From contig OZ245002.1 of NCBI GenBank assembly GCA_965223415.1, positions 1,632,001 to 1,696,000 of the forward strand: a stretch of DNA of 64,000 bases. Reading direction: 5' to 3'. Below the pieces are notes generated by a model. That model was not told where the DNA came from and did not search any database. It saw nothing but the letters and a program-made list of their open reading frames with translations. Numbering within the stretch: the stretch's first letter is position 1; each line of letters opens with the position of its first letter. A program made the position numbers and the translations under genes. This document shows, in pieces, positions 42,727 to 50,827 of the stretch. The stretch is from Myxococcota bacterium (lineage in GTDB: Bacteria > Myxococcota_A > UBA9160 > UBA6930).

Positions 42727-43074
42727 TCAGCTGCCGCGGCGGGCCTCGATCGCCGCCGCCAGCCCCTCGACCTCTTCGCGGCTGGCGCTCTCGAAGGGGA
42801 CCGACTTCCCTTCGCTGGCGGTGAGCTGGAGCTGGAAGGTCGGCTTCTTCCACGCCCACCAGCCGACCGCCGCCGCGATCGTGGCCAGGCCGGCGGGAAC
42901 GCCGATCCACCCGAGCTCGCCCATCGCAGCCGCCAGCATGACGAGCCCCGCGACGATCATCAGGATGGGGCCGTTGGCGGGGGGCGCGACCCGGACCACC
43001 TCCACCCGCTCGAGGCCCGAGATGTCGAGCTCGCGACCGAGCTTCGCTTCGAGAGGGGTCGTGCCGCTATTCAT
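42727..43074 (-). CDS. Small two-TM membrane protein (DUF6232-like)
   Basis: Two hydrophobic helices; start overlaps the kinase stop. Confidence 0.65.
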   Translation of the reverse strand: MNSGTTPLEAKLGRELDISGLERVEVVRVAPPANGPILMIVAGLVMLAAAMGELGWIGVPAGLATIAAAVGWWAWKKPTFQLQLTASEGKSVPFESASREEVEGLAAAIEARRGS

Positions 43075-45226
43075 CGCTGCCTCGAGCGGTTGGCTCCACG
43101 ATCAGGCTCTCGATTGCCGTCGTGAGCCCGATCGGTGAGAACGGTTTGGGAAGGAAATGGGTTCGGGCGAGCCCGGGCTCGCTGAGGCCGATCTCCCGGT
43201 CGCTGTAGCCGGACACGAAGAGCACGGGGAGATCGGGGCGATCGCGCCGCAGGTGGTCGGCCAGCTCGGGACCACGCATCTCGGGCATGACGACGTCGGA
43301 GACGAGCAGGTCGAGCTCCGCGGAGGCACCGTTGACCACGTCCAGGGCCGCGGGCCCATTCGCCGCCTCCAGGACGTCGAAGCCCGCGCGACGCAGCGTC
43401 TTGCACATCAGCGCCCGAACGCTCGACTCGTCCTCCACGAGCAGGACGCGGAGATCGCGCGCGACCGTCGGGCCGGCGTCCGTCCTCGGAGATGCGGCGG
43501 CGGCCGCCTCCCGGGCCTGCGCTCGCGGAAAGAAGAGCGCCACCCGGGTCCCCTGCCCCGGAGCGCTGTGCAAGCGGATGCCGCCGTGGCTCTGCTCGAC
43601 GATGCCGTAGACCGAGGCCAGCCCGAGGCCGGTGCCCTCGCCCACCTCCTTCGTGGTGAAGAAGGGCTCGAAGGCACGGTCCCGCGTCTCGGGCTCCATG
43701 CCGGCTCCGGAATCCTCCACCACGAGCTGGGCGTACTCTCCGGGGGGCACGCCGATGGCCGCCGATTCCTCCCGGCCGAGGTAGGTGCGCAGGGTCTCGA
43801 TTCGCAGCAGACCGCCCTGGGCCATGGCATCCCGGGCGTTCGTGGTGAGGTTGACGAGGACCCGCTGCATCTGGATCGGGTCGATCTCGACCTGCCAGGG
43901 CGCCGAGTCGAGGCGAAGCTCCAGCCGCACCTCTTCGCGGACCAGGCTCTGCAGCATCCCCCGAAGGTCCGTCACCAGGGTGTCGAGGGTCGTCCGGCGC
44001 GGCTGCAGGAGCTGCTTGCGACCGAAGGCCAGCAGCTGTCCCGTCAGCGCCGCGGCCCGGCGCGCGGCCCGGCGGATCTCCTCGGCGGCGCCGCTGTCCT
44101 GGAGCTCCTCGGCGTAGCCGGTGATCACGGTGAGCAGGTTGTTGAAGTCGTGAGCCACGCCCCCGGCGAGCACGCCCAGGCTCTCGAGCTTCTGGGCCTC
44201 GGCCAGGTGCTCCCGTGCCGCGCGCTCCTGCGTGATGTCGCGCCCGGCGAAGATCCAGCGCTCTTCGCCCTCGGGCGTCTGGTAGCGGCTGGCCACGACC
44301 TCCTGCCAGACGCTGTGGCCGTGGCGGTGGCGATTTTCCACCTCGACCCGCTGGCCGGGCCGGAGGCTCTCCTCCACCGGGGGGGGCCTCGTGGGCGGGT
44401 TGGCCAGGAGAAAGCTCGGCTCACGTCCGACGATCTCTTCCGGCTTGAATCCCAGCACCTCCTCGAGACGAGGATTCGCGTACAGGACCACGCCGTGCTC
44501 ATCGGTCTCCGTCAGGGTCTGGAACGATTCGTCGCTGATCGCCAGGAAACGCGCCTGCTCGCCCTCGAGGCGGCGCGCCATCTCCTCGGCGAGGTGGCGC
44601 GCCTCGTCGGCTTCGTCGAGGGCCCGGGCCCGCAGCCTCTCACCCAGGGCCATTCCGCCGAAGACGACCACGGTGAACGCCGTCGTTGCCCACGCCACCA
44701 CCATGGGCGAACGCGCCTCGTCCAGGAACCGCTCGCCCTGGAGCATGGCCAGGGACCAGGCCGACAGGACCACGACGCAGGTCCAGAGCCATCCAGCCCG
44801 GGTGCCGACCACCAGCATGGCAGCCACGGGCACCAGGAAGAGGAACGCGATCGAGAGCGTCTCGTCCCAGACGAACCCGGCATGCCCGCCCAGATCGATG
44901 AAGACCCCGAGCGGGATCCAGTGACCAGCGGCCCGAACCGAGTGGGTGAGCCACAGGGTCGGAAGGGGAAGCGCCCAGAGCACCGTGGCGATCCAAGAGA
45001 GCTTCGGGCTGAGCCCCGGCTCACCTTGCCCGGCGACCAGCGCACCGATCGACCCGGCCAGGACGCACAGCAAGGAGATCCCCATCAGGGCCCGAACCCG
45101 AGTCCGCTCCACGGGCCGGCTGGCCGCGAGCACTTCGGCGGGAACCAGGCGATCGAGCAGGTGATGGGTGAGAAAGTCCGGGCGAGGCTGCACGCTTTCC
45201 CCCGAGAGCCAGGGGCCAGGATACAT
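43067..45226 (-). CDS. Membrane-bound PAS hybrid sensor histidine kinase/response regulator
   Basis: N-terminal TMs, PAS, H-box VAHDFNNLL, FEPFFTTK, GTGLGL, receiver SDVVMP and KPF; alternative GTG start at 45193. Confidence 0.94.
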   Translation of the reverse strand: MYPGPWLSGESVQPRPDFLTHHLLDRLVPAEVLAASRPVERTRVRALMGISLLCVLAGSIGALVAGQGEPGLSPKLSWIATVLWALPLPTLWLTHSVRAAGHWIPLGVFIDLGGHAGFVWDETLSIAFLFLVPVAAMLVVGTRAGWLWTCVVVLSAWSLAMLQGERFLDEARSPMVVAWATTAFTVVVFGGMALGERLRARALDEADEARHLAEEMARRLEGEQARFLAISDESFQTLTETDEHGVVLYANPRLEEVLGFKPEEIVGREPSFLLANPPTRPPPVEESLRPGQRVEVENRHRHGHSVWQEVVASRYQTPEGEERWIFAGRDITQERAAREHLAEAQKLESLGVLAGGVAHDFNNLLTVITGYAEELQDSGAAEEIRRAARRAAALTGQLLAFGRKQLLQPRRTTLDTLVTDLRGMLQSLVREEVRLELRLDSAPWQVEIDPIQMQRVLVNLTTNARDAMAQGGLLRIETLRTYLGREESAAIGVPPGEYAQLVVEDSGAGMEPETRDRAFEPFFTTKEVGEGTGLGLASVYGIVEQSHGGIRLHSAPGQGTRVALFFPRAQAREAAAAASPRTDAGPTVARDLRVLLVEDESSVRALMCKTLRRAGFDVLEAANGPAALDVVNGASAELDLLVSDVVMPEMRGPELADHLRRDRPDLPVLFVSGYSDREIGLSEPGLARTHFLPKPFSPIGLTTAIESLIVEPTARGSDE

Positions 45227-45288
45227 GCTGCGCCCAAACTCGCAGTGCCTACAATCTCGGCTCCCCCGACGGAGGCACCCGAGCCAAG

Positions 45289-46053
45289 ATGTCCGACGAG
45301 CAGACCCGGGATCCGGGTTCCCTCCCGCCCCACAAGACCCTCACCAGCTACTACGACTCGGATCCGGAGCGAAGCGCCTACGTCCACGATCTCTTCAAGC
45401 GCACCGCTCCCCACTACAACACGATCGAGCGCATCTTCGGCAACGGCGGGCTCGCCTACCGACGCTACTCGCTCCGCTTCAACGGGCTCCGGGCGGGCAT
45501 GAAGGTGCTGGACGTGGCGATCGGCACCGCCGCCGTCTCACGCGGCGCCGTGAAGGAGGTCGGTCCGACCGGCCAGGTCTTCGGCGTCGACCCCAACGAG
45601 GGCATGCTCGCCGAAGCGCGCAAGAACTTCTCGGGCCCGCTCACCCGCGGCGTCGCCCAGGCCCTGCCCTTCAAGAGCGACACCTTCGACTTCGTGACGA
45701 TGGGCATCGCTCTCCGTCACGTCTCGGACCTGAAGGCGACCTTCTCCGAGTACTACCGGGTGCTCAAGCCCGGAGGCCGCGTGTGGCTGCTCGAGGGCCA
45801 CGTCGCGAAGAGCCGGATCGGCCACGCCCTCACCCGCTTCGTCTGGAAGACGGTGGTCCCGGGCCTCACCCTGCTCTTCACCCGCGATCGCGACGCCAAG
45901 CTGCTGATGGACTACTACTGGGACACCGTCGAGCAGTGCGTCCCCGAAGAGCAGATCGTGGAGGCCATGCGGAGCGCGGGGTTCGAGCACGCCCGCGTCC
46001 GGGTGACGATGCCCGGGGCATTCTGCGAGTACAAGGGGCAGAAGCCGGAGTAG
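45289..46053 (+). CDS. Class I SAM-dependent methyltransferase (UbiE/MenG-like)
   Basis: VLDVAIGT, VDPNEGML, LPF....FD, RVLKPGG. Confidence 0.88.
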   Translation: MSDEQTRDPGSLPPHKTLTSYYDSDPERSAYVHDLFKRTAPHYNTIERIFGNGGLAYRRYSLRFNGLRAGMKVLDVAIGTAAVSRGAVKEVGPTGQVFGVDPNEGMLAEARKNFSGPLTRGVAQALPFKSDTFDFVTMGIALRHVSDLKATFSEYYRVLKPGGRVWLLEGHVAKSRIGHALTRFVWKTVVPGLTLLFTRDRDAKLLMDYYWDTVEQCVPEEQIVEAMRSAGFEHARVRVTMPGAFCEYKGQKPE

Positions 46054-46086
46054 GCACGGGGCCGGTGCAGCGACGGGGAGCCTTCG

Positions 46087-46632
46087 CTAGTCCTCCGCCT
46101 CCCGCCCGCGAAACCCAAGCTCGCCGAGCTTCCGGGCGATATCCTGCCCGGCGGTTCCGACCTGCACCTCCTTGTCGATCGCGCGGATCACGCCTTCGCG
46201 ATCGATGTAGAAGGTCCAGCGGCGGGCGAAGAGGCCGCCGAAGCCGCGCACGCCGTAGGCCTTCGCCGCGTCACCGCTGGTGTCGGAGAGGAGGGTCTGG
46301 GTGGTGTCGAGGCTCTCGGCGAACTCCCGGTTCTTCTCGGGATCGTCGAGGCTCACCATGAACACGGCGGCTTCGTAGGCGGCGAGGTCGGAGGCGCTGT
46401 CCCGCAGCGCCTGGAGCTCCTGGGTTCAGCCGGGAGTGAAGGCCTTCGGGAACCAGGCGAGCACGAGCTCCCGCTGGCCCACGAAGTCCCCGAGCGCGTA
46501 GGTCTTGCCGTCCGAGCCTGCCAGGCGGAACGGCGGCGCGGGGTCGCCCGGGGAGAGATCCGCAGCGGCTGCAGCGGCGACGCCGAGAACGAGCAGGGCG
46601 ACCACGAGCAAGGGGAAGGCGAGTCGCATCAC
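46087..46632 (-). CDS. Peroxiredoxin (BCP/AhpC-TSA type), probable selenoprotein with signal peptide; in-frame UGA at 46428-46426
   Basis: ORFs 46426..46632 and 46087..46365 share a frame; readthrough gives WFPKAFTPG-U-TQELQALRD (PxxxTxxC/U); downstream SLD, LLSD and RWTFYID motifs. Confidence 0.88.
46392..46412 (-). promoter_or_regulatory. Bacterial SECIS-like hairpin
   Basis: mRNA AGGCGCUG-CGGGA-CAGCGCCU, perfect 8-bp stem with loop 21 nt after the UGA and G at loop position 2. Confidence 0.75.
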
Positions 46633-46652
46633 CTACCGAGCATAGCCGGGCC

Positions 46653-47294
46653 TCAGAGGTCGACGACCATGAGCTGCACGTGATGGCGGCGGCCCTCCGG
46701 CGAGCGCAGGCCCGGCGTCGGAACCGGGGGCCCGTGGCGGCGGAAGCCGACGCGCTCGAAGAAGCCGATGGCCGGGTGGTTCTCGGCGAGCGTTCCGAGG
46801 TGGCAGCCCGGCGAGCCGCGCTCGCGAAGCCGGGCGAACCAGGCATCCGTCAGGCGACGGCCGGCGCCGCGGCCGCGCACCGGTGCGAGGAGATCGATGT
46901 GGAGATGAGAGGGCCAGCGCGGATCGTCGAGCTCGCCGTCCGGGATGCCCATGCGAAGGGCGTCCACGAAGGACCGCCACAGGAAGCCGGCGGTGCCCGG
47001 GCGAAGGAGCAGGCCGTAGCGCAGGGCGCTCTTCAGGATCGCGCGTTCGGGGCTGGGCGCACGGCGGGTGTCGACGCAGCCGATCAGGTACCCCCGCACC
47101 TCGCCTTCGTGCTCCACGACCCAGGCCGATTCCGGCTCCTCGTCGGTGTAGTAGCCGGACCAGATGTCGGAGAAGCTGTCACGGTGGCGCCAGTAGAAGC
47201 TCGGCGAGGCACCCATGTAGCCGGTCTCGTAGGTGACCCGGCGAAGGCCGGACCGATCGGCGGAGCGATAGGGTCGAACGTCCAGCTCGGTCAC
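46653..47294 (-). CDS. GNAT family N-acetyltransferase
   Basis: HLHIDLL..VRGRGAG, N..AIGFFERVGF. Confidence 0.88.
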   Translation of the reverse strand: MTELDVRPYRSADRSGLRRVTYETGYMGASPSFYWRHRDSFSDIWSGYYTDEEPESAWVVEHEGEVRGYLIGCVDTRRAPSPERAILKSALRYGLLLRPGTAGFLWRSFVDALRMGIPDGELDDPRWPSHLHIDLLAPVRGRGAGRRLTDAWFARLRERGSPGCHLGTLAENHPAIGFFERVGFRRHGPPVPTPGLRSPEGRRHHVQLMVVDL

Positions 47295-47299
47295 AGCGC

Positions 47300-50200
47300 T
47301 CAGCGCAGGGCGGCGAGCGGATCCTGGCGGAGTCGCTCACCCACCTGGAGGAATCGCCGTCGGAGCGGCTCCTCTTCGAACGGCTCCGCCAGGGCCGCGA
47401 GGGTCGCAGCCGCGTCCGCGTGGTGCTTCTCAGCCTCCCCGTCGTGGCCCCGGCGTCGGGCCAGCTCGCCGAGCAGCGCGAGGGCGCGCCGGCGGATCGG
47501 CGGGTAGCCGATCGCGTCCGTCGAGGCGAGGGCTTCCCGCAGGCTCTCTTCAGCAGCGCCGCGCTCGTCGAGGTGGAGCCAGGCGCGCCCGCGCAGCTCG
47601 AGGGCGCGGGCGACGAGCTTGGCCGCGTCGTTGCGGCGCGCACCAGCGAGCTCCTCGTCCAGGAGCGGAAGGGCTCGCTCGGGCTCGCCGCGGGCGATCC
47701 ACAGCCGCGCCTCCGCGTCCTGAAGATGGAGCGAGTAGCGCCAGCGCATCCACGGATCGTCGCCCCCGGCGAGGTCGGCGCGAACCGGCTCCAGCACGGC
47801 GTCGGCTCCAGCGAGATCTTCGAGCGCGATGCGGTTGCCGGCCTTGTTGATCGACGCGTTCCCGTGGATCTCGTTGACCCCCGCCACCAGCTCGAGATCG
47901 AGCAGCTCCTGCGCCGTCTCGACGGAGCGGCGATTGAAATCCTCGGCGAGCTCGTCGGCCCCGAGCTCCGCGTGGATCCAGCCCAGGGTGTTCAGCATGC
48001 GCGTGCGCTGGTGACGATCCCCGATGCGCTCGGCCAGCTCGTCCGCGTCGCGGATGAGCCGCAGCGCCTCGCCGTACTGCCCCAGACAGCAATGGGCCTT
48101 GGCCCGGGACCACTGGCCGGGGATCAGGAGCCCTGGCAGGCGGTGCTTGCGTGCGAGCTCGACGCCCTCGGCCTGCGCCGCCGCCGCCTCCCGGTAGCGC
48201 CCGCACCACTCCGCGTACTGACCCTGCAGGTAGCGCAGCACGATCACGACCTCGGGGTGGGTGGGCGCCAGCCGTTCGACCTCCTCGAGCAGCCGATCCT
48301 GCTCCGGGAACTCGGCGACGATCGCATGGCGGAACACCTCGAGGGTCTTTGCGAAGGCGAGCCCTTCGCCGAGGCCGTGCTCCCGAGAGAGCCGCGCGCA
48401 CGCCGCCACCGCCTCGTCCATCTGGGGATAGTGATGGCCCCAGGCGAAGCCGTGGGCCGCACGGCCCAGGTTCAGCACGACGTCGGTGGGATCGTCCGCC
48501 AGCTCGGCAGCGCGAAGAAAGGCGTCGCCGGAGGCCTGGAACTCGCTCATGGCACTGGTGCACATGCCCAGCAGCTCTTCCAGCTCGCGGAGGGTCGCAG
48601 CGGACACCGCCTCGCCCAGCCGTTCGGCGATGGCGAGGGCGCGCCGCGCGTACTCGCGCGCGGACTGGTTCGCAAAGGCCTCGGCGGCCCGCTCGGCCGC
48701 GCGCATGTCGTAGAAGAAGGCCTTGTCCCACTCCTCGGCGGCGGTGAAGTGGTGAGCGAGATGGTCGAAGTGCTCGGCCAGGCGATCGCGGTAGAGCTCC
48801 TCGATCGCCAGGCCGACGAGCCGGTGCAGCTCCTTGCGGCGGCTCTCGAGAACGCTGTCGTAGGCGACGTCGCGGGTGAGCGCGTGCTTGAACATGAAGG
48901 CCAGCTCGGGATGCGCGGCCGTCTCGTAGATCAGCTCCAGGGAGCGGAGCTCGTCGATCACCGGCTCGATGTCGCCGCCAACCGCCGCCGCGTGCTCGAG
49001 AAGGCGGAGCGCGAACTCCCGACCGATCACGGCGCCGAGCTGAAGGGCGCGCTTGGGCTCGTCGGCCAGACGATCGAGGCGCGCCATCAGCACGTCCTGG
49101 ATCGAGTCGGGAACCGAGCCGCCGTCGAGCTTGCGGGCCACCTCCACCCGGCCGGCAACGGGGCGCAGGGTGCCGTCCTCGACCAGGGACTGGATCACCT
49201 CCTCGACGAAGAAGGGGTTGCCCTCCGCCCGGGCGGCGATGAGATCGCGGAGCTCTCCGGGCACGCTGTGGGCGGCGAGGACCTGCTCGGCCATGCGACC
49301 CATCTCCGCCGGGCTCAGGGGCTGGAGCGAGAGGCGAAGGTAGAAGCTGCGATCGCCGAAGGGGTGGCGGTAGCCGGGCCGGTGGGTCAGCACGAGGAGG
49401 ATGCGACTCGCCGGGACGCTGTCGATCACGAAGGCGAGGAACTCCTCCGAGGCCTTGTCGATCCAGTGGATGTCCTCGATCACGAACACGAAGGGCGCAT
49501 CCCGGGCCGCGCGCTGGAGCTGGGCGCGAAGCGCATCGAAGGTGCGACTGCGCCGGGTGGCAGCGTCCATGGCGTCGACTTCCTCGTCGCCGCTCGGCAA
49601 CGAGAGCAGGGTCTTCAGGTAGGGGAGCGTCCATGCGAGCTCGCCGCCGGCCTCGCTCTCGACGCGGTCCATCCGTTCGAGGGCCACGGCGTCGTCGTCA
49701 CCGGAATCGATGCCGAACGCCTGGCGCAGAGCGTCGATGATGGGGTGGAACGGAAAGTCGCGGGCGTAGGTCATGCAGCGACCTTCCGCCCATCGATGGG
49801 GTCGCCCGGCCAGGCTCCGCTGGAACTCGTACCGCAGGCGCGATTTCCCGATGCCCGCCTCGCCGACCAGGAAGGCCACCTGGCCGACGCCGGAAGCCGC
49901 GGAATCGAAGGCCCGCTGCAGGGCCGCGAGCTCCAGCTCCCGGCCGACCAGCGGCGTCAGGCCTCGTTCGGCCTGGGCCTCGACGCGCCCGGGCACGCTT
50001 CGCTCCCGCTGGGCCACGAAGGCGCGCACCGGCTCGGCCTTTCCCTTCAGGTCGAAGCTCCCGCGATCCTCCAGGTCGAAGAAGCCCTCCACCGAGCTTC
50101 GGGTCGCCTCGGAGACCAACACGGCACCGGGCGGCGCGGCCGCCTGCAGCCTTGACGCCAGGTTGGTCGTGTCGCCGACGGCGGTGTAGTCCATGCGCAG

Positions 50201-50827
50201 GTCGTCGCCGATGCGACCGACCACCACCGGGCCGGAGTGGATGCCGACCCGCATGTGCAGGGGCGCGCCGTAGCGCCGGGCAACCTCCTCGGAGAGGGGC
50301 CCGAGGGAGCGCTGAACGGCCAGCGCGGCGGCGACGGCTCGCCGGGGTGCATCTTCCAGGGCGAGGGGCGCGCCGAACAGAGCCATTACGCCGTCGCCGA
50401 GGAACTGGTTCACCGTTCCCTCGAAGCGGTGCACCTGATCGAGGATCAACGCGAAGCAGCGATCCATGATCTCGTGCATCGCTTCGGCACCGATGCGCTC
50501 GGCGAGGGCGGTGGAATCCGCGAGGTCGCAGAAGAGGACGGTGACGTTCTTGCGCTCGCCTTCCATCGCCGCGCGGCTCTGCAGGATCCGCTCGGCGAGG
50601 TGGGCCGGTGTGTAGGCGCTGGGGGCGTCGGGCGACTGCGACGCCTCGCCGGCCGGCGCCGACGCCTCGCTGGCCGGCGTCAGCCGCTCACCACAGGCGT
50701 TGCAGAAGGAGGACGCGGGCGGGTTGCCATGGCCGCAGCTCGCGCAGGCAGCGGACAGGGGCGCACCGCACCCGTTGCAGAAACGGGCGCCGGTCGGGTT
50801 CTCCCGTTCGCAGGCCGAGCAATCCAC
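47300..50827 (-). CDS. Double zinc ribbon - class III nucleotidyl cyclase - STAND ATPase - TPR protein
   Basis: Four CxxC pairs, LFCDLADST, FLGDG, GDTTNLASRL, GEAGIGKS, EDIHWID, GNPFF, FKHAL, helical repeats. Confidence 0.93.
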   Translation of the reverse strand: MDCSACERENPTGARFCNGCGAPLSAACASCGHGNPPASSFCNACGERLTPASEASAPAGEASQSPDAPSAYTPAHLAERILQSRAAMEGERKNVTVLFCDLADSTALAERIGAEAMHEIMDRCFALILDQVHRFEGTVNQFLGDGVMALFGAPLALEDAPRRAVAAALAVQRSLGPLSEEVARRYGAPLHMRVGIHSGPVVVGRIGDDLRMDYTAVGDTTNLASRLQAAAPPGAVLVSEATRSSVEGFFDLEDRGSFDLKGKAEPVRAFVAQRERSVPGRVEAQAERGLTPLVGRELELAALQRAFDSAASGVGQVAFLVGEAGIGKSRLRYEFQRSLAGRPHRWAEGRCMTYARDFPFHPIIDALRQAFGIDSGDDDAVALERMDRVESEAGGELAWTLPYLKTLLSLPSGDEEVDAMDAATRRSRTFDALRAQLQRAARDAPFVFVIEDIHWIDKASEEFLAFVIDSVPASRILLVLTHRPGYRHPFGDRSFYLRLSLQPLSPAEMGRMAEQVLAAHSVPGELRDLIAARAEGNPFFVEEVIQSLVEDGTLRPVAGRVEVARKLDGGSVPDSIQDVLMARLDRLADEPKRALQLGAVIGREFALRLLEHAAAVGGDIEPVIDELRSLELIYETAAHPELAFMFKHALTRDVAYDSVLESRRKELHRLVGLAIEELYRDRLAEHFDHLAHHFTAAEEWDKAFFYDMRAAERAAEAFANQSAREYARRALAIAERLGEAVSAATLRELEELLGMCTSAMSEFQASGDAFLRAAELADDPTDVVLNLGRAAHGFAWGHHYPQMDEAVAACARLSREHGLGEGLAFAKTLEVFRHAIVAEFPEQDRLLEEVERLAPTHPEVVIVLRYLQGQYAEWCGRYREAAAAQAEGVELARKHRLPGLLIPGQWSRAKAHCCLGQYGEALRLIRDADELAERIGDRHQRTRMLNTLGWIHAELGADELAEDFNRRSVETAQELLDLELVAGVNEIHGNASINKAGNRIALEDLAGADAVLEPVRADLAGGDDPWMRWRYSLHLQDAEARLWIARGEPERALPLLDEELAGARRNDAAKLVARALELRGRAWLHLDERGAAEESLREALASTDAIGYPPIRRRALALLGELARRRGHDGEAEKHHADAAATLAALAEPFEEEPLRRRFLQVGERLRQDPLAALR

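Follow-up and report, generated by a model that had tools for sequence, protein, structure and literature searches.

The stretch of DNA described here, in the following called the window, comprises 64,000 nucleotides (nt) from a Myxococcota bacterium (GenBank assembly GCA_965223415.1, contig OZ245002.1, positions 1,632,001 to 1,696,000), whose genome is one 5.83-Mb contig on which the window occupies C1:1632001-1696000. On its minus strand, at 46632..46087, the window carries a gene that we interpret as encoding a functional, exported peroxiredoxin of the BCP/PrxQ type, in which the peroxidatic residue would be selenocysteine (Sec, U) encoded by UGA, inserted by SelB recruited to a selenocysteine insertion sequence (SECIS) and recycled by an outside thiol. 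To this explanation as a whole we assign a probability of roughly 0.8; that the gene is a genuine, Sec-decoded peroxiredoxin gene appears, from the comparison of its relatives, very probable. The decisive support is comparative. Of 50 orthologous genes, 39 retain TGA, and the hairpin is present in all 39 of these.

The reading frame and its in-frame UGA

The open reading frame (ORF) listing of the window contains two minus-strand fragments lying in the same frame, 46426..46632 (68 aa) and 46087..46365 (92 aa). Translated with TGA as U, 46632..46087 yields 181 residues with one internal TGA, which is codon 69; there are no other stops and no frameshifts. The gene starts with GTG at 46632 (181 codons) or ATG at 46629 (180 codons) and ends with TAG at 46089..46087. 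Codon 69 is found in the context W-F-P62-K-A-F-T66-P-G-U69-T-Q-E-L, i.e., the peroxiredoxin motif PxxxTxxC with U in place of C, and the 181-residue product contains no Cys. The original prediction, made from the sequence alone, had already described one frame split by a single TGA at the peroxidatic position, a Cys-free 181-residue readthrough product and a perfect 8-bp hairpin with its loop 21 nt past the UGA, and had foreseen that annotation would deliver a pseudogene or two fragments; coordinates, motif, translation and hairpin were all found as described, and the ORF listing had indeed split the gene. The features of the locus are as follows.

46087..46632, minus strand: complete predicted selenoprotein gene for a BCP/PrxQ-type 1-Sec peroxiredoxin precursor (single frame with TGA read as U)
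46561..46632, minus strand: predicted N-terminal signal peptide, residues 1-24 (hydrophobic leader pattern)
46426..46428, minus strand: UGA codon 69, predicted Sec at the peroxidatic position (motif P62xxxT66xxU69)
46413..46425, minus strand: 13-nt spacer from the UGA to the stem (loop 21 nt after the UGA)
46392..46412, minus strand: predicted SECIS hairpin (minimum free energy, conservation in 39/39, covariation, codon entropy and the constraints on bacterial SECIS elements)
46180..46551, minus strand: peroxiredoxin (AhpC/TSA) domain, residues 28-151, with catalytic P62, T66, U69 and R138 (Pfam, alignment and fold)

Across 41 genomes from the same genus, family and order, 18 orthologue matches (56-99% identity) were detected, each with exactly one TGA and all translating to FPKAFTxGU; in more distant paralogues U and C alternate. 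Among 401 genomes sampled evenly over the phylum there were 39 matches with E values of 1e-40 or better in 37 genomes, 28 with and 11 without TGA, which were confined to six families of one class in an uncultured, Myxococcota-like lineage. The 18 first orthologues together with 32 further loci that were fetched form the set of 50 genes from 48 genomes on which the comparisons below are based. Codon 69 is TGA in 39 of them (38 genomes) and TGC in the other 11, in the context FP.A.T.G-U or FP.A.T.G-C, so that the alternation of Cys and UGA among homologues, put forward by the original prediction as a check, occurs at exactly this column. The TGA forms (hereafter Sec forms) are retained down to 45% identity, and the half of the gene downstream of the TGA is kept in frame (with R138-W-T and D153 invariant). 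An assembly error is excluded as the source of the TGA: the codon is found again in 38 further genomes and in the contig of a relative aligned to the window, where 18 differences in 46345..46488 leave the TGA unchanged (the alignment of contig X5 to the window ends at 46431, just before the TGA). Four sequencing runs contain the sequence in full; all stem from a single study and may be its source. No RNA run was listed as containing it.

The named public relatives are metagenome-assembled genomes of uncultured Myxococcota or "Deltaproteobacteria". Public full-length homologues at 50-69% identity are labelled "peroxiredoxin Q/BCP", and the column of residue 69 holds Cys in 17 and W in 1 of the 18 that were aligned. 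In the public metagenome protein P0002 (67% identity) the Sec/Cys column is occupied by W (FTPGWTQEL); this is probably a TGA that the gene caller translated as Trp, which would make P0002 a mis-annotated selenoprotein.

The hairpin, the Sec machinery and the exchange of Sec for Cys

The 5′ arm AGGCGCUG (46412..46405) and the 3′ arm CAGCGCCU (46399..46392) pair perfectly over 8 bp and enclose the loop CGGGA (46404..46400, 5 nt); the hairpin spans codons 74-81 (Q-A-L-R-D-S-A-S) and has a minimum free energy (MFE) of −13.7 kcal/mol. For bacterial SECIS elements (bSECIS) the legend of Fig. 2 of PMC13188914 gives a loop of 3-9 nt, a stem of 4-16 bp, a spacing of 16-37 nt and an MFE ≤ −7.5, with a G at one of the two leading positions of the loop and G or U directly after it. 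With a loop of 5 nt, a stem of 8 bp (6-7 of them conserved), G as the second loop nucleotide and G or U as the third, and a spacing of 21 nt, the element lies within these constraints. A scan of 46000..46700 against Rfam (E up to 10) returned noise only (mir-193, sX2 and Ms_IGR-5) and no SECIS family.

The core [G/U]CGCUG-CG[U/G]GA-CAG[C/U]G[C/A] is present in 39/39 Sec forms, in a gapless alignment and at identical spacing from the UGA, and in 0/11 of the TGC forms (Cys forms). Conservation of the hairpin had been named as a further check, and it came out as a hairpin in every TGA form with the core in no TGC form. Four of the 8 pairs are invariant across the 39 Sec forms; one is G-C in 34 and G-U in 5; another is G-C in 28, U-A in 8 and broken in 3, the U-A being a two-sided compensatory change (Ala/Ala to Ser/Glu); and a further one is G-C in 26, C-G in 5, A-U in 1, G-U in 1 and broken in 6. 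The relative's contig mentioned above follows this family pattern when compared with the hairpin of the window (outer pair A-U to C-G, a stem G-C to G-U, loop G to U). Altogether 88.8% of the cells are paired, and 0/500 shuffles reached either this pairing figure or the covariation score; when the partner was shifted by 1-3 columns, pairing fell to 14-55%. RNAalifold recovers the same helix. An MFE ≤ −7.5 was calculated for 37/39 Sec forms versus 2/11 Cys forms, with medians of −13.1 versus −5.8.

In the six codons of the hairpin core synonymous variation is almost absent. The relative codon entropies of codons 75-80 are 0, 0, 0.28, 0, 0.21 and 0.17, on average 0.11 versus 0.68 for the other 72 conserved columns; this is the lowest of all 6-column windows, and 0/100000 random sets of 6 columns were as low. 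In the Sec forms Ala75 is always GCG, Leu76 always CUG and Ser79 always AGC or AGU, and Arg77 is CGU in 31 and CGG in 8 and never CGC, the codon used for Arg138 in 29/38. The AT-rich relatives L027 and L030 retain the GC-rich hairpin amid AT-rich codons. In the Cys forms codon 79 encodes Ser in 0/11, and codon 77 is CGC in 6, CGU in 1 and codes for a different residue in 4. From these comparisons the hairpin is predicted to be a clade-specific bacterial SECIS.

That the core motif is a common genomic repeat was considered and rejected, since there are 2 copies in 5.8 Mb; the second has no TGA in the 30 nt upstream.

The genome possesses what is required for Sec decoding, as the original prediction had asked: genes for selA (497 bits), selB (267 bits) and selD (253 bits), all above the curated cut-offs, and a tRNA-SeC(tca) found with aragorn. 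selB is located at C1:1703912-1705810, approximately 8 kb past the end of the window; the open frame around it, with 1182 aa, far exceeds the 581 positions of the selB model. TGA ends 2446 of the 4123 open frames of ≥500 codons and is the commonest stop; an alternative code (TGA = Trp or Gly) was rejected because TGA terminates most long frames. In the aragorn list of this genome no tRNA reading UGA other than tRNA-SeC was found. The list also contains two tRNA-??? with 2-nt "anticodons" (c[2585101,2585190] and c[4923085,4923169]) and several unusually long tRNA-Ala (up to 101 nt), which may be false positives or odd tRNAs.

A quick maximum-likelihood tree was calculated from 48 of the orthologues and 6 Planctomycete-type Cys homologues as outgroup, with the catalytic column masked (L029 and L030 were omitted as too short or masked). 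It requires at least 4 Sec/Cys changes, and well-supported branches make at least 2 of these unavoidable. Sec clades enclose Cys forms, for example L067 within a clade of 99% support and a Cys clade of 6 genes. Given the one hairpin common to all Sec forms, the simplest assumption, with the rooting weak, would be that Sec arose once and was replaced by Cys again several times. L067 (genome G342), a Cys form standing among Sec forms, has retained the rare CGU at Arg77 and CUGCGUGAC of the hairpin, and looks like a case of a decaying SECIS relic after a recent switch from Sec to Cys. selA was found in 14/14 of the Sec-form genomes tested and in 8/10 of the Cys-form genomes. The two genomes without it, G080 and G399 (96% and 95% complete), both carry a Cys form; G282, which belongs to the same genus, possesses selA together with a Sec form.

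Protein family, export and rival explanations

PF00578 matches the protein over residues 28-151, across the TGA, with an E value of 2.1e-28 (99.2 bits, cut-off 26), and P62, T66 and R138 are invariant across 19 aligned sequences. The closest sequences in the PDB are Bcp1 and Bcp4 from Sulfolobus and AhpE from Mycobacterium tuberculosis (E 4.9e-19 to 1.7e-13). An AlphaFold model calculated with alignment A1 (19 sequences) has a predicted local distance difference test score (pLDDT) of 91.2 and shows the thioredoxin-like fold of peroxiredoxins, in which the first turn of helix alpha2 (residues 67-78) contains U69. Its top Foldseek matches are Bcp1, BCP, BcpB, AhpE and PrxQ, with a best E of 1.6e-16, template modelling (TM) scores to the target of 0.82-0.86 and root-mean-square deviations of 2.3-2.7; normalized to the target, the TM score is 0.85 for Bcp1 (3drn) and 0.86 for AhpE (1xxu). 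Sequence and model thus place the protein among the BCP/PrxQ-type peroxiredoxins, in the BCP/PrxQ-AhpE branch.

The mature part is free of Cys in 37/39 Sec forms, and the peroxidatic Cys is the only one in 8/11 Cys forms; because of this the clade is predicted to use a one-residue chemistry like that of AhpE, and the claim of a 1-Sec enzyme without a resolving residue holds. The Cys orthologues L071, L072 and L074 as well as the Planctomycete-type proteins P0092-P0120 have a second Cys four residues past the peroxidatic one (C-T-[IK]-E-C), which suggests a 2-Cys variant with an unusual C-x3-C spacing.

The leader consists of an n-region M-R, the hydrophobic core LAFPLLVVALLVLGV (approximately 20 hydrophobic residues in the leader) and a c-region AAAAAA, with cleavage likely before D25. 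By the criterion of a 12-residue window with a mean hydropathy of ≥1.8, a hydrophobic leader is present in 45/50 orthologues (one of the five failures is N-masked), and a comparable leader is found in public Cys homologues. Of the original claim that the protein is exported with a signal peptide, the leader-like N-terminus with its hydropathy and A-x-A motif was confirmed; export itself follows from it by inference and is, to judge from the leader, probable.

For selenium insertion, export, cleavage, substrate and reductant we infer the following course. SelB with Sec-tRNA(Sec) would be recruited by the hairpin, which begins 13 nt past the UGA, carries the loop CG[G/U]GA 21 nt downstream of it and would be embedded as a SECIS in the codons for A-L-R-D-S-A. 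The precursor, with its Sec-pathway signal peptide, would then be exported to the cell envelope, where the selenolate would reduce H2O2 or organic hydroperoxides and be converted to the selenenic acid. Because the mature protein contains no Cys, an outside thiol would be needed to recycle this 1-Sec enzyme. The likeliest donor would be a periplasmic thioredoxin-like protein fed by a membrane transporter of the CcdA/DsbD type, as in the ScsB-TlpA-PprX pathway of Caulobacter; two genes of the DsbD_TM family are present in the genome (C1:4716639-4717316 and C1:1622732-1623370).

Several observations weigh against parts of this reading. The outermost pair of the window's hairpin (23-43) is unpaired in 26/39 Sec forms, and because of this pair-by-pair tally the conserved stem is to be taken as 6-7 bp. 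The optional N1-N2 closing pair of the bSECIS loop is not matched. The hairpin overlaps the conserved residues A-L-R-D-S-A, and part of its conservation could be conservation of the protein; moreover, the 39 Sec forms are kin from one class, and the counts and shuffle tests overstate their independence. Perfect 8-bp hairpins with loops of 3-9 nt occur in this genome (71% GC) with a frequency of 6.4e-4 per nt, which gives a chance of approximately 1.4% that one falls into the slot permitted behind any given codon, and the whole 81-nt region folds like its shuffles (z 0.09, a value that is uninformative at 71% GC); for these two reasons the hairpin in this single sequence, taken alone, is suggestive and points only mildly beyond chance. 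On the side of the protein, all matches to NCBIfam models stay below the curated cut-offs, the best being BCP (NF006960) with 77.6 versus 140 bits, and the Deinococcus PrxQ (NF053650) reaching 60.7 versus 260 bits; the protein is a relative, not an equivalog, of E. coli-type BCP and of Deinococcus PrxQ. The leader might stay uncleaved and anchor the protein in the membrane. Finally, no conserved redox partner (thioredoxin-like or DsbD) was found near the gene in a Pfam scan of 127 flanking ORFs at 9 orthologue loci (3-kb flanks); the flanks of these loci vary and encode an acyl-CoA dehydrogenase, an enoyl-CoA hydratase, a carboxylesterase, a sigma factor and others.

Three other explanations have to be weighed against a Sec-decoded, exported peroxiredoxin. 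A nonsense mutation of TGC to TGA that inactivated an ordinary Cys peroxiredoxin and left only two dead pieces of it would need a single C-to-A change, and both the two fragments in the ORF listing and the existence of Cys orthologues would fit; yet the same TGA is found in 39 genes of 38 genomes with the downstream half conserved in frame, there is no further stop or frameshift, and a hairpin that is co-conserved only with TGA has no place in a pseudogene, which makes this explanation scarcely credible. Cys insertion at Sec codons under selenium shortage is known in other systems, and the W recorded for P0002 also speaks for a UGA that is read through as Trp or Cys, by near-cognate insertion or local reassignment, the hairpin merely stimulating readthrough. 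Such a reading is nevertheless very improbable in a genome with the full Sec machinery, with TGA as the commonest stop and with tRNA-SeC as the only tRNA found to read UGA; an enzyme with Trp as its peroxidatic residue would be inactive, the geometry of the hairpin fits a SelB-type bSECIS, and the two sampled genomes without selA have TGC rather than TGA.

The third explanation leaves Sec in place and concerns export: the protein could be a genuine Sec peroxiredoxin that is held by an uncleaved membrane anchor or that starts further downstream and acts in the cytoplasm. The model gives the leader a low confidence (pLDDT approximately 60, with a lone helix of residues 6-17), and there are in-frame alternative starts 61 and 59 codons before U69, within the hydrophobic core of the leader. 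Set against this are the basic n-region, hydrophobic core and A-x-A-like c-region in 45/50 orthologues and in the Cys homologues, a leader conserved in its pattern but not in its sequence, as is typical of signal peptides, a Pfam domain that begins only at residue 28, and the comparable 20-residue signal sequence that PMC3322552 describes for the periplasmic PrxQ PprX. We therefore consider retention in the cytoplasm or membrane unlikely, and a Sec-containing enzyme of the cell envelope remains the preferred reading.

In the vicinity of the gene one further feature was listed.

46653..47294, minus strand: GNAT acetyltransferase, upstream neighbour, 20 nt from the prx start (PF00583, E 4.6e-10)

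This gene is possibly co-transcribed with prx and has no part in the proposed mechanism; GNAT and a UbiE-type methyltransferase recur as neighbours only in 3 close relatives (L014, L016 and L075) of 26 loci. Between 43067 and 50827 the window contains very long ORFs opposite real genes, typical of the spurious frames expected at 71% GC: 43157..45502 (plus strand, 781 aa) lies opposite a histidine kinase gene (43067..45226, minus strand), and 47420..50155 (plus strand) opposite a cyclase/AAA/TPR gene (47300..50827, minus strand). Outside the window, at C1:48792-49256 (minus strand), the genome harbors a second Sec-peroxiredoxin paralogue with 42% identity and one in-frame TGA (FYVKDFTPGU-TIEARDF), which differs in the sequence that follows and has no evident hydrophobic leader. 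The relatives L032, L034 and L035 have comparable U-type paralogues, each with a hairpin of its own.

Significance and comparison with known systems

Sec-containing Bcp-type peroxiredoxins with the motif TxxU are already known and have been catalogued since 2001-2006, and in this respect the original prediction had overrated the novelty of the gene (PMC1794560, PMC9312934, PMC13188914). A published exported Sec peroxiredoxin was not found in the open-access literature searched. We put forward as a tentative idea, with somewhat less than even odds, that the clade represents the first selenoperoxidase of the bacterial cell envelope, a Cys-free 1-Sec PrxQ with a signal peptide, in which Sec would have been kept since ATP-dependent repair is not available to a periplasmic enzyme and selenium withstands irreversible over-oxidation; it would have arisen once, together with its own SECIS, and have reverted to Cys several times with decay of the hairpin, in one genus coinciding with the loss of selA. 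If true, this would provide a natural series for what Sec buys a peroxiredoxin.

The 39 Sec and 11 Cys orthologues, with a hairpin that is lost together with the Sec codon, are a clean natural experiment on the exchange of Sec and Cys, and the set could be used to test the use of selenium in peroxide defence outside the cytoplasm. Gene callers split or misread the gene, and none of the NCBIfam selenoprotein models reaches its cut-off on this protein (PrxU, NF040737, 33 versus 270 bits; Prx-SUH, NF045827, 21.3 versus 298 bits); for both reasons the clade of 39 genes is likely to be under-annotated. Our understanding of Sec decoding and of peroxiredoxin action is unchanged, and no new principle emerges.

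The Sec peroxiredoxin family "Prx" (PF00578/COG1225, Bcp; motif TxxU) is tabulated in PMC9312934 and PMC13188914, and PMC1794560 lists 12 Prx selenoproteins, 3 of them in Anaeromyxobacter dehalogenans. The protein of the window shares with this family the Pfam domain, TxxU with peroxidatic Sec, a SECIS directly past the UGA and widespread Cys homologues, and compared by description its clade may already be among the catalogued members. It differs in that the descriptions in these catalogues do not mention a leader, the periplasm or a 1-Sec chemistry (neither "periplasm" nor "signal peptide" occurs in PMC13188914), and in that Table 1 of PMC1794560 records for Prx only events from Cys to Sec, whereas in the clade of the window one origin of Sec appears to have been followed by returns to Cys.

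Like the bSECIS of the E. coli fdhF type, the predicted element is a stem-loop in the coding region immediately 3′ of the UGA, with a small apical loop containing G and then G or U; unlike it, it has a short stem (6-7 conserved bp), a loop CG[U/G]GA of invariant length and no conserved bulged U that could be seen. PrxU of Eubacterium acidaminophilum, reportedly the only experimentally characterized Sec peroxiredoxin (it is said to have been described by Sohling et al. in 2001), has in common with the window protein that it is a Sec-containing peroxiredoxin. It belongs to another Prx subfamily: the window protein scores 33 versus the required 270 bits with the PrxU model, whose 233 positions are aligned only from position 39.

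PprX of Caulobacter crescentus, according to PMC3322552, is a periplasmic BCP/PrxQ that reduces peroxides in the cell envelope and depends on reducing power brought in by a DsbD-family transporter in the ScsB-TlpA-PprX pathway. The likeness lies in the BCP/PrxQ subfamily, in the N-terminal signal sequence of approximately 20 residues and in the 2 DsbD_TM genes of the window's genome; the difference is that PprX has a peroxidatic and a resolving Cys and the window protein is predicted to have Sec and has no Cys, and that no TlpA or ScsB partner has been identified for it. The closest solved relatives by sequence and fold, AhpE from M. tuberculosis and Bcp1 and Bcp4 from Sulfolobus solfataricus, are cytoplasmic, leaderless Cys enzymes with 29-32% identity to the window protein; AhpE, a 1-Cys Prx by the title of its PDB entry, has the same one-residue chemistry that is proposed here for the selenoenzyme.

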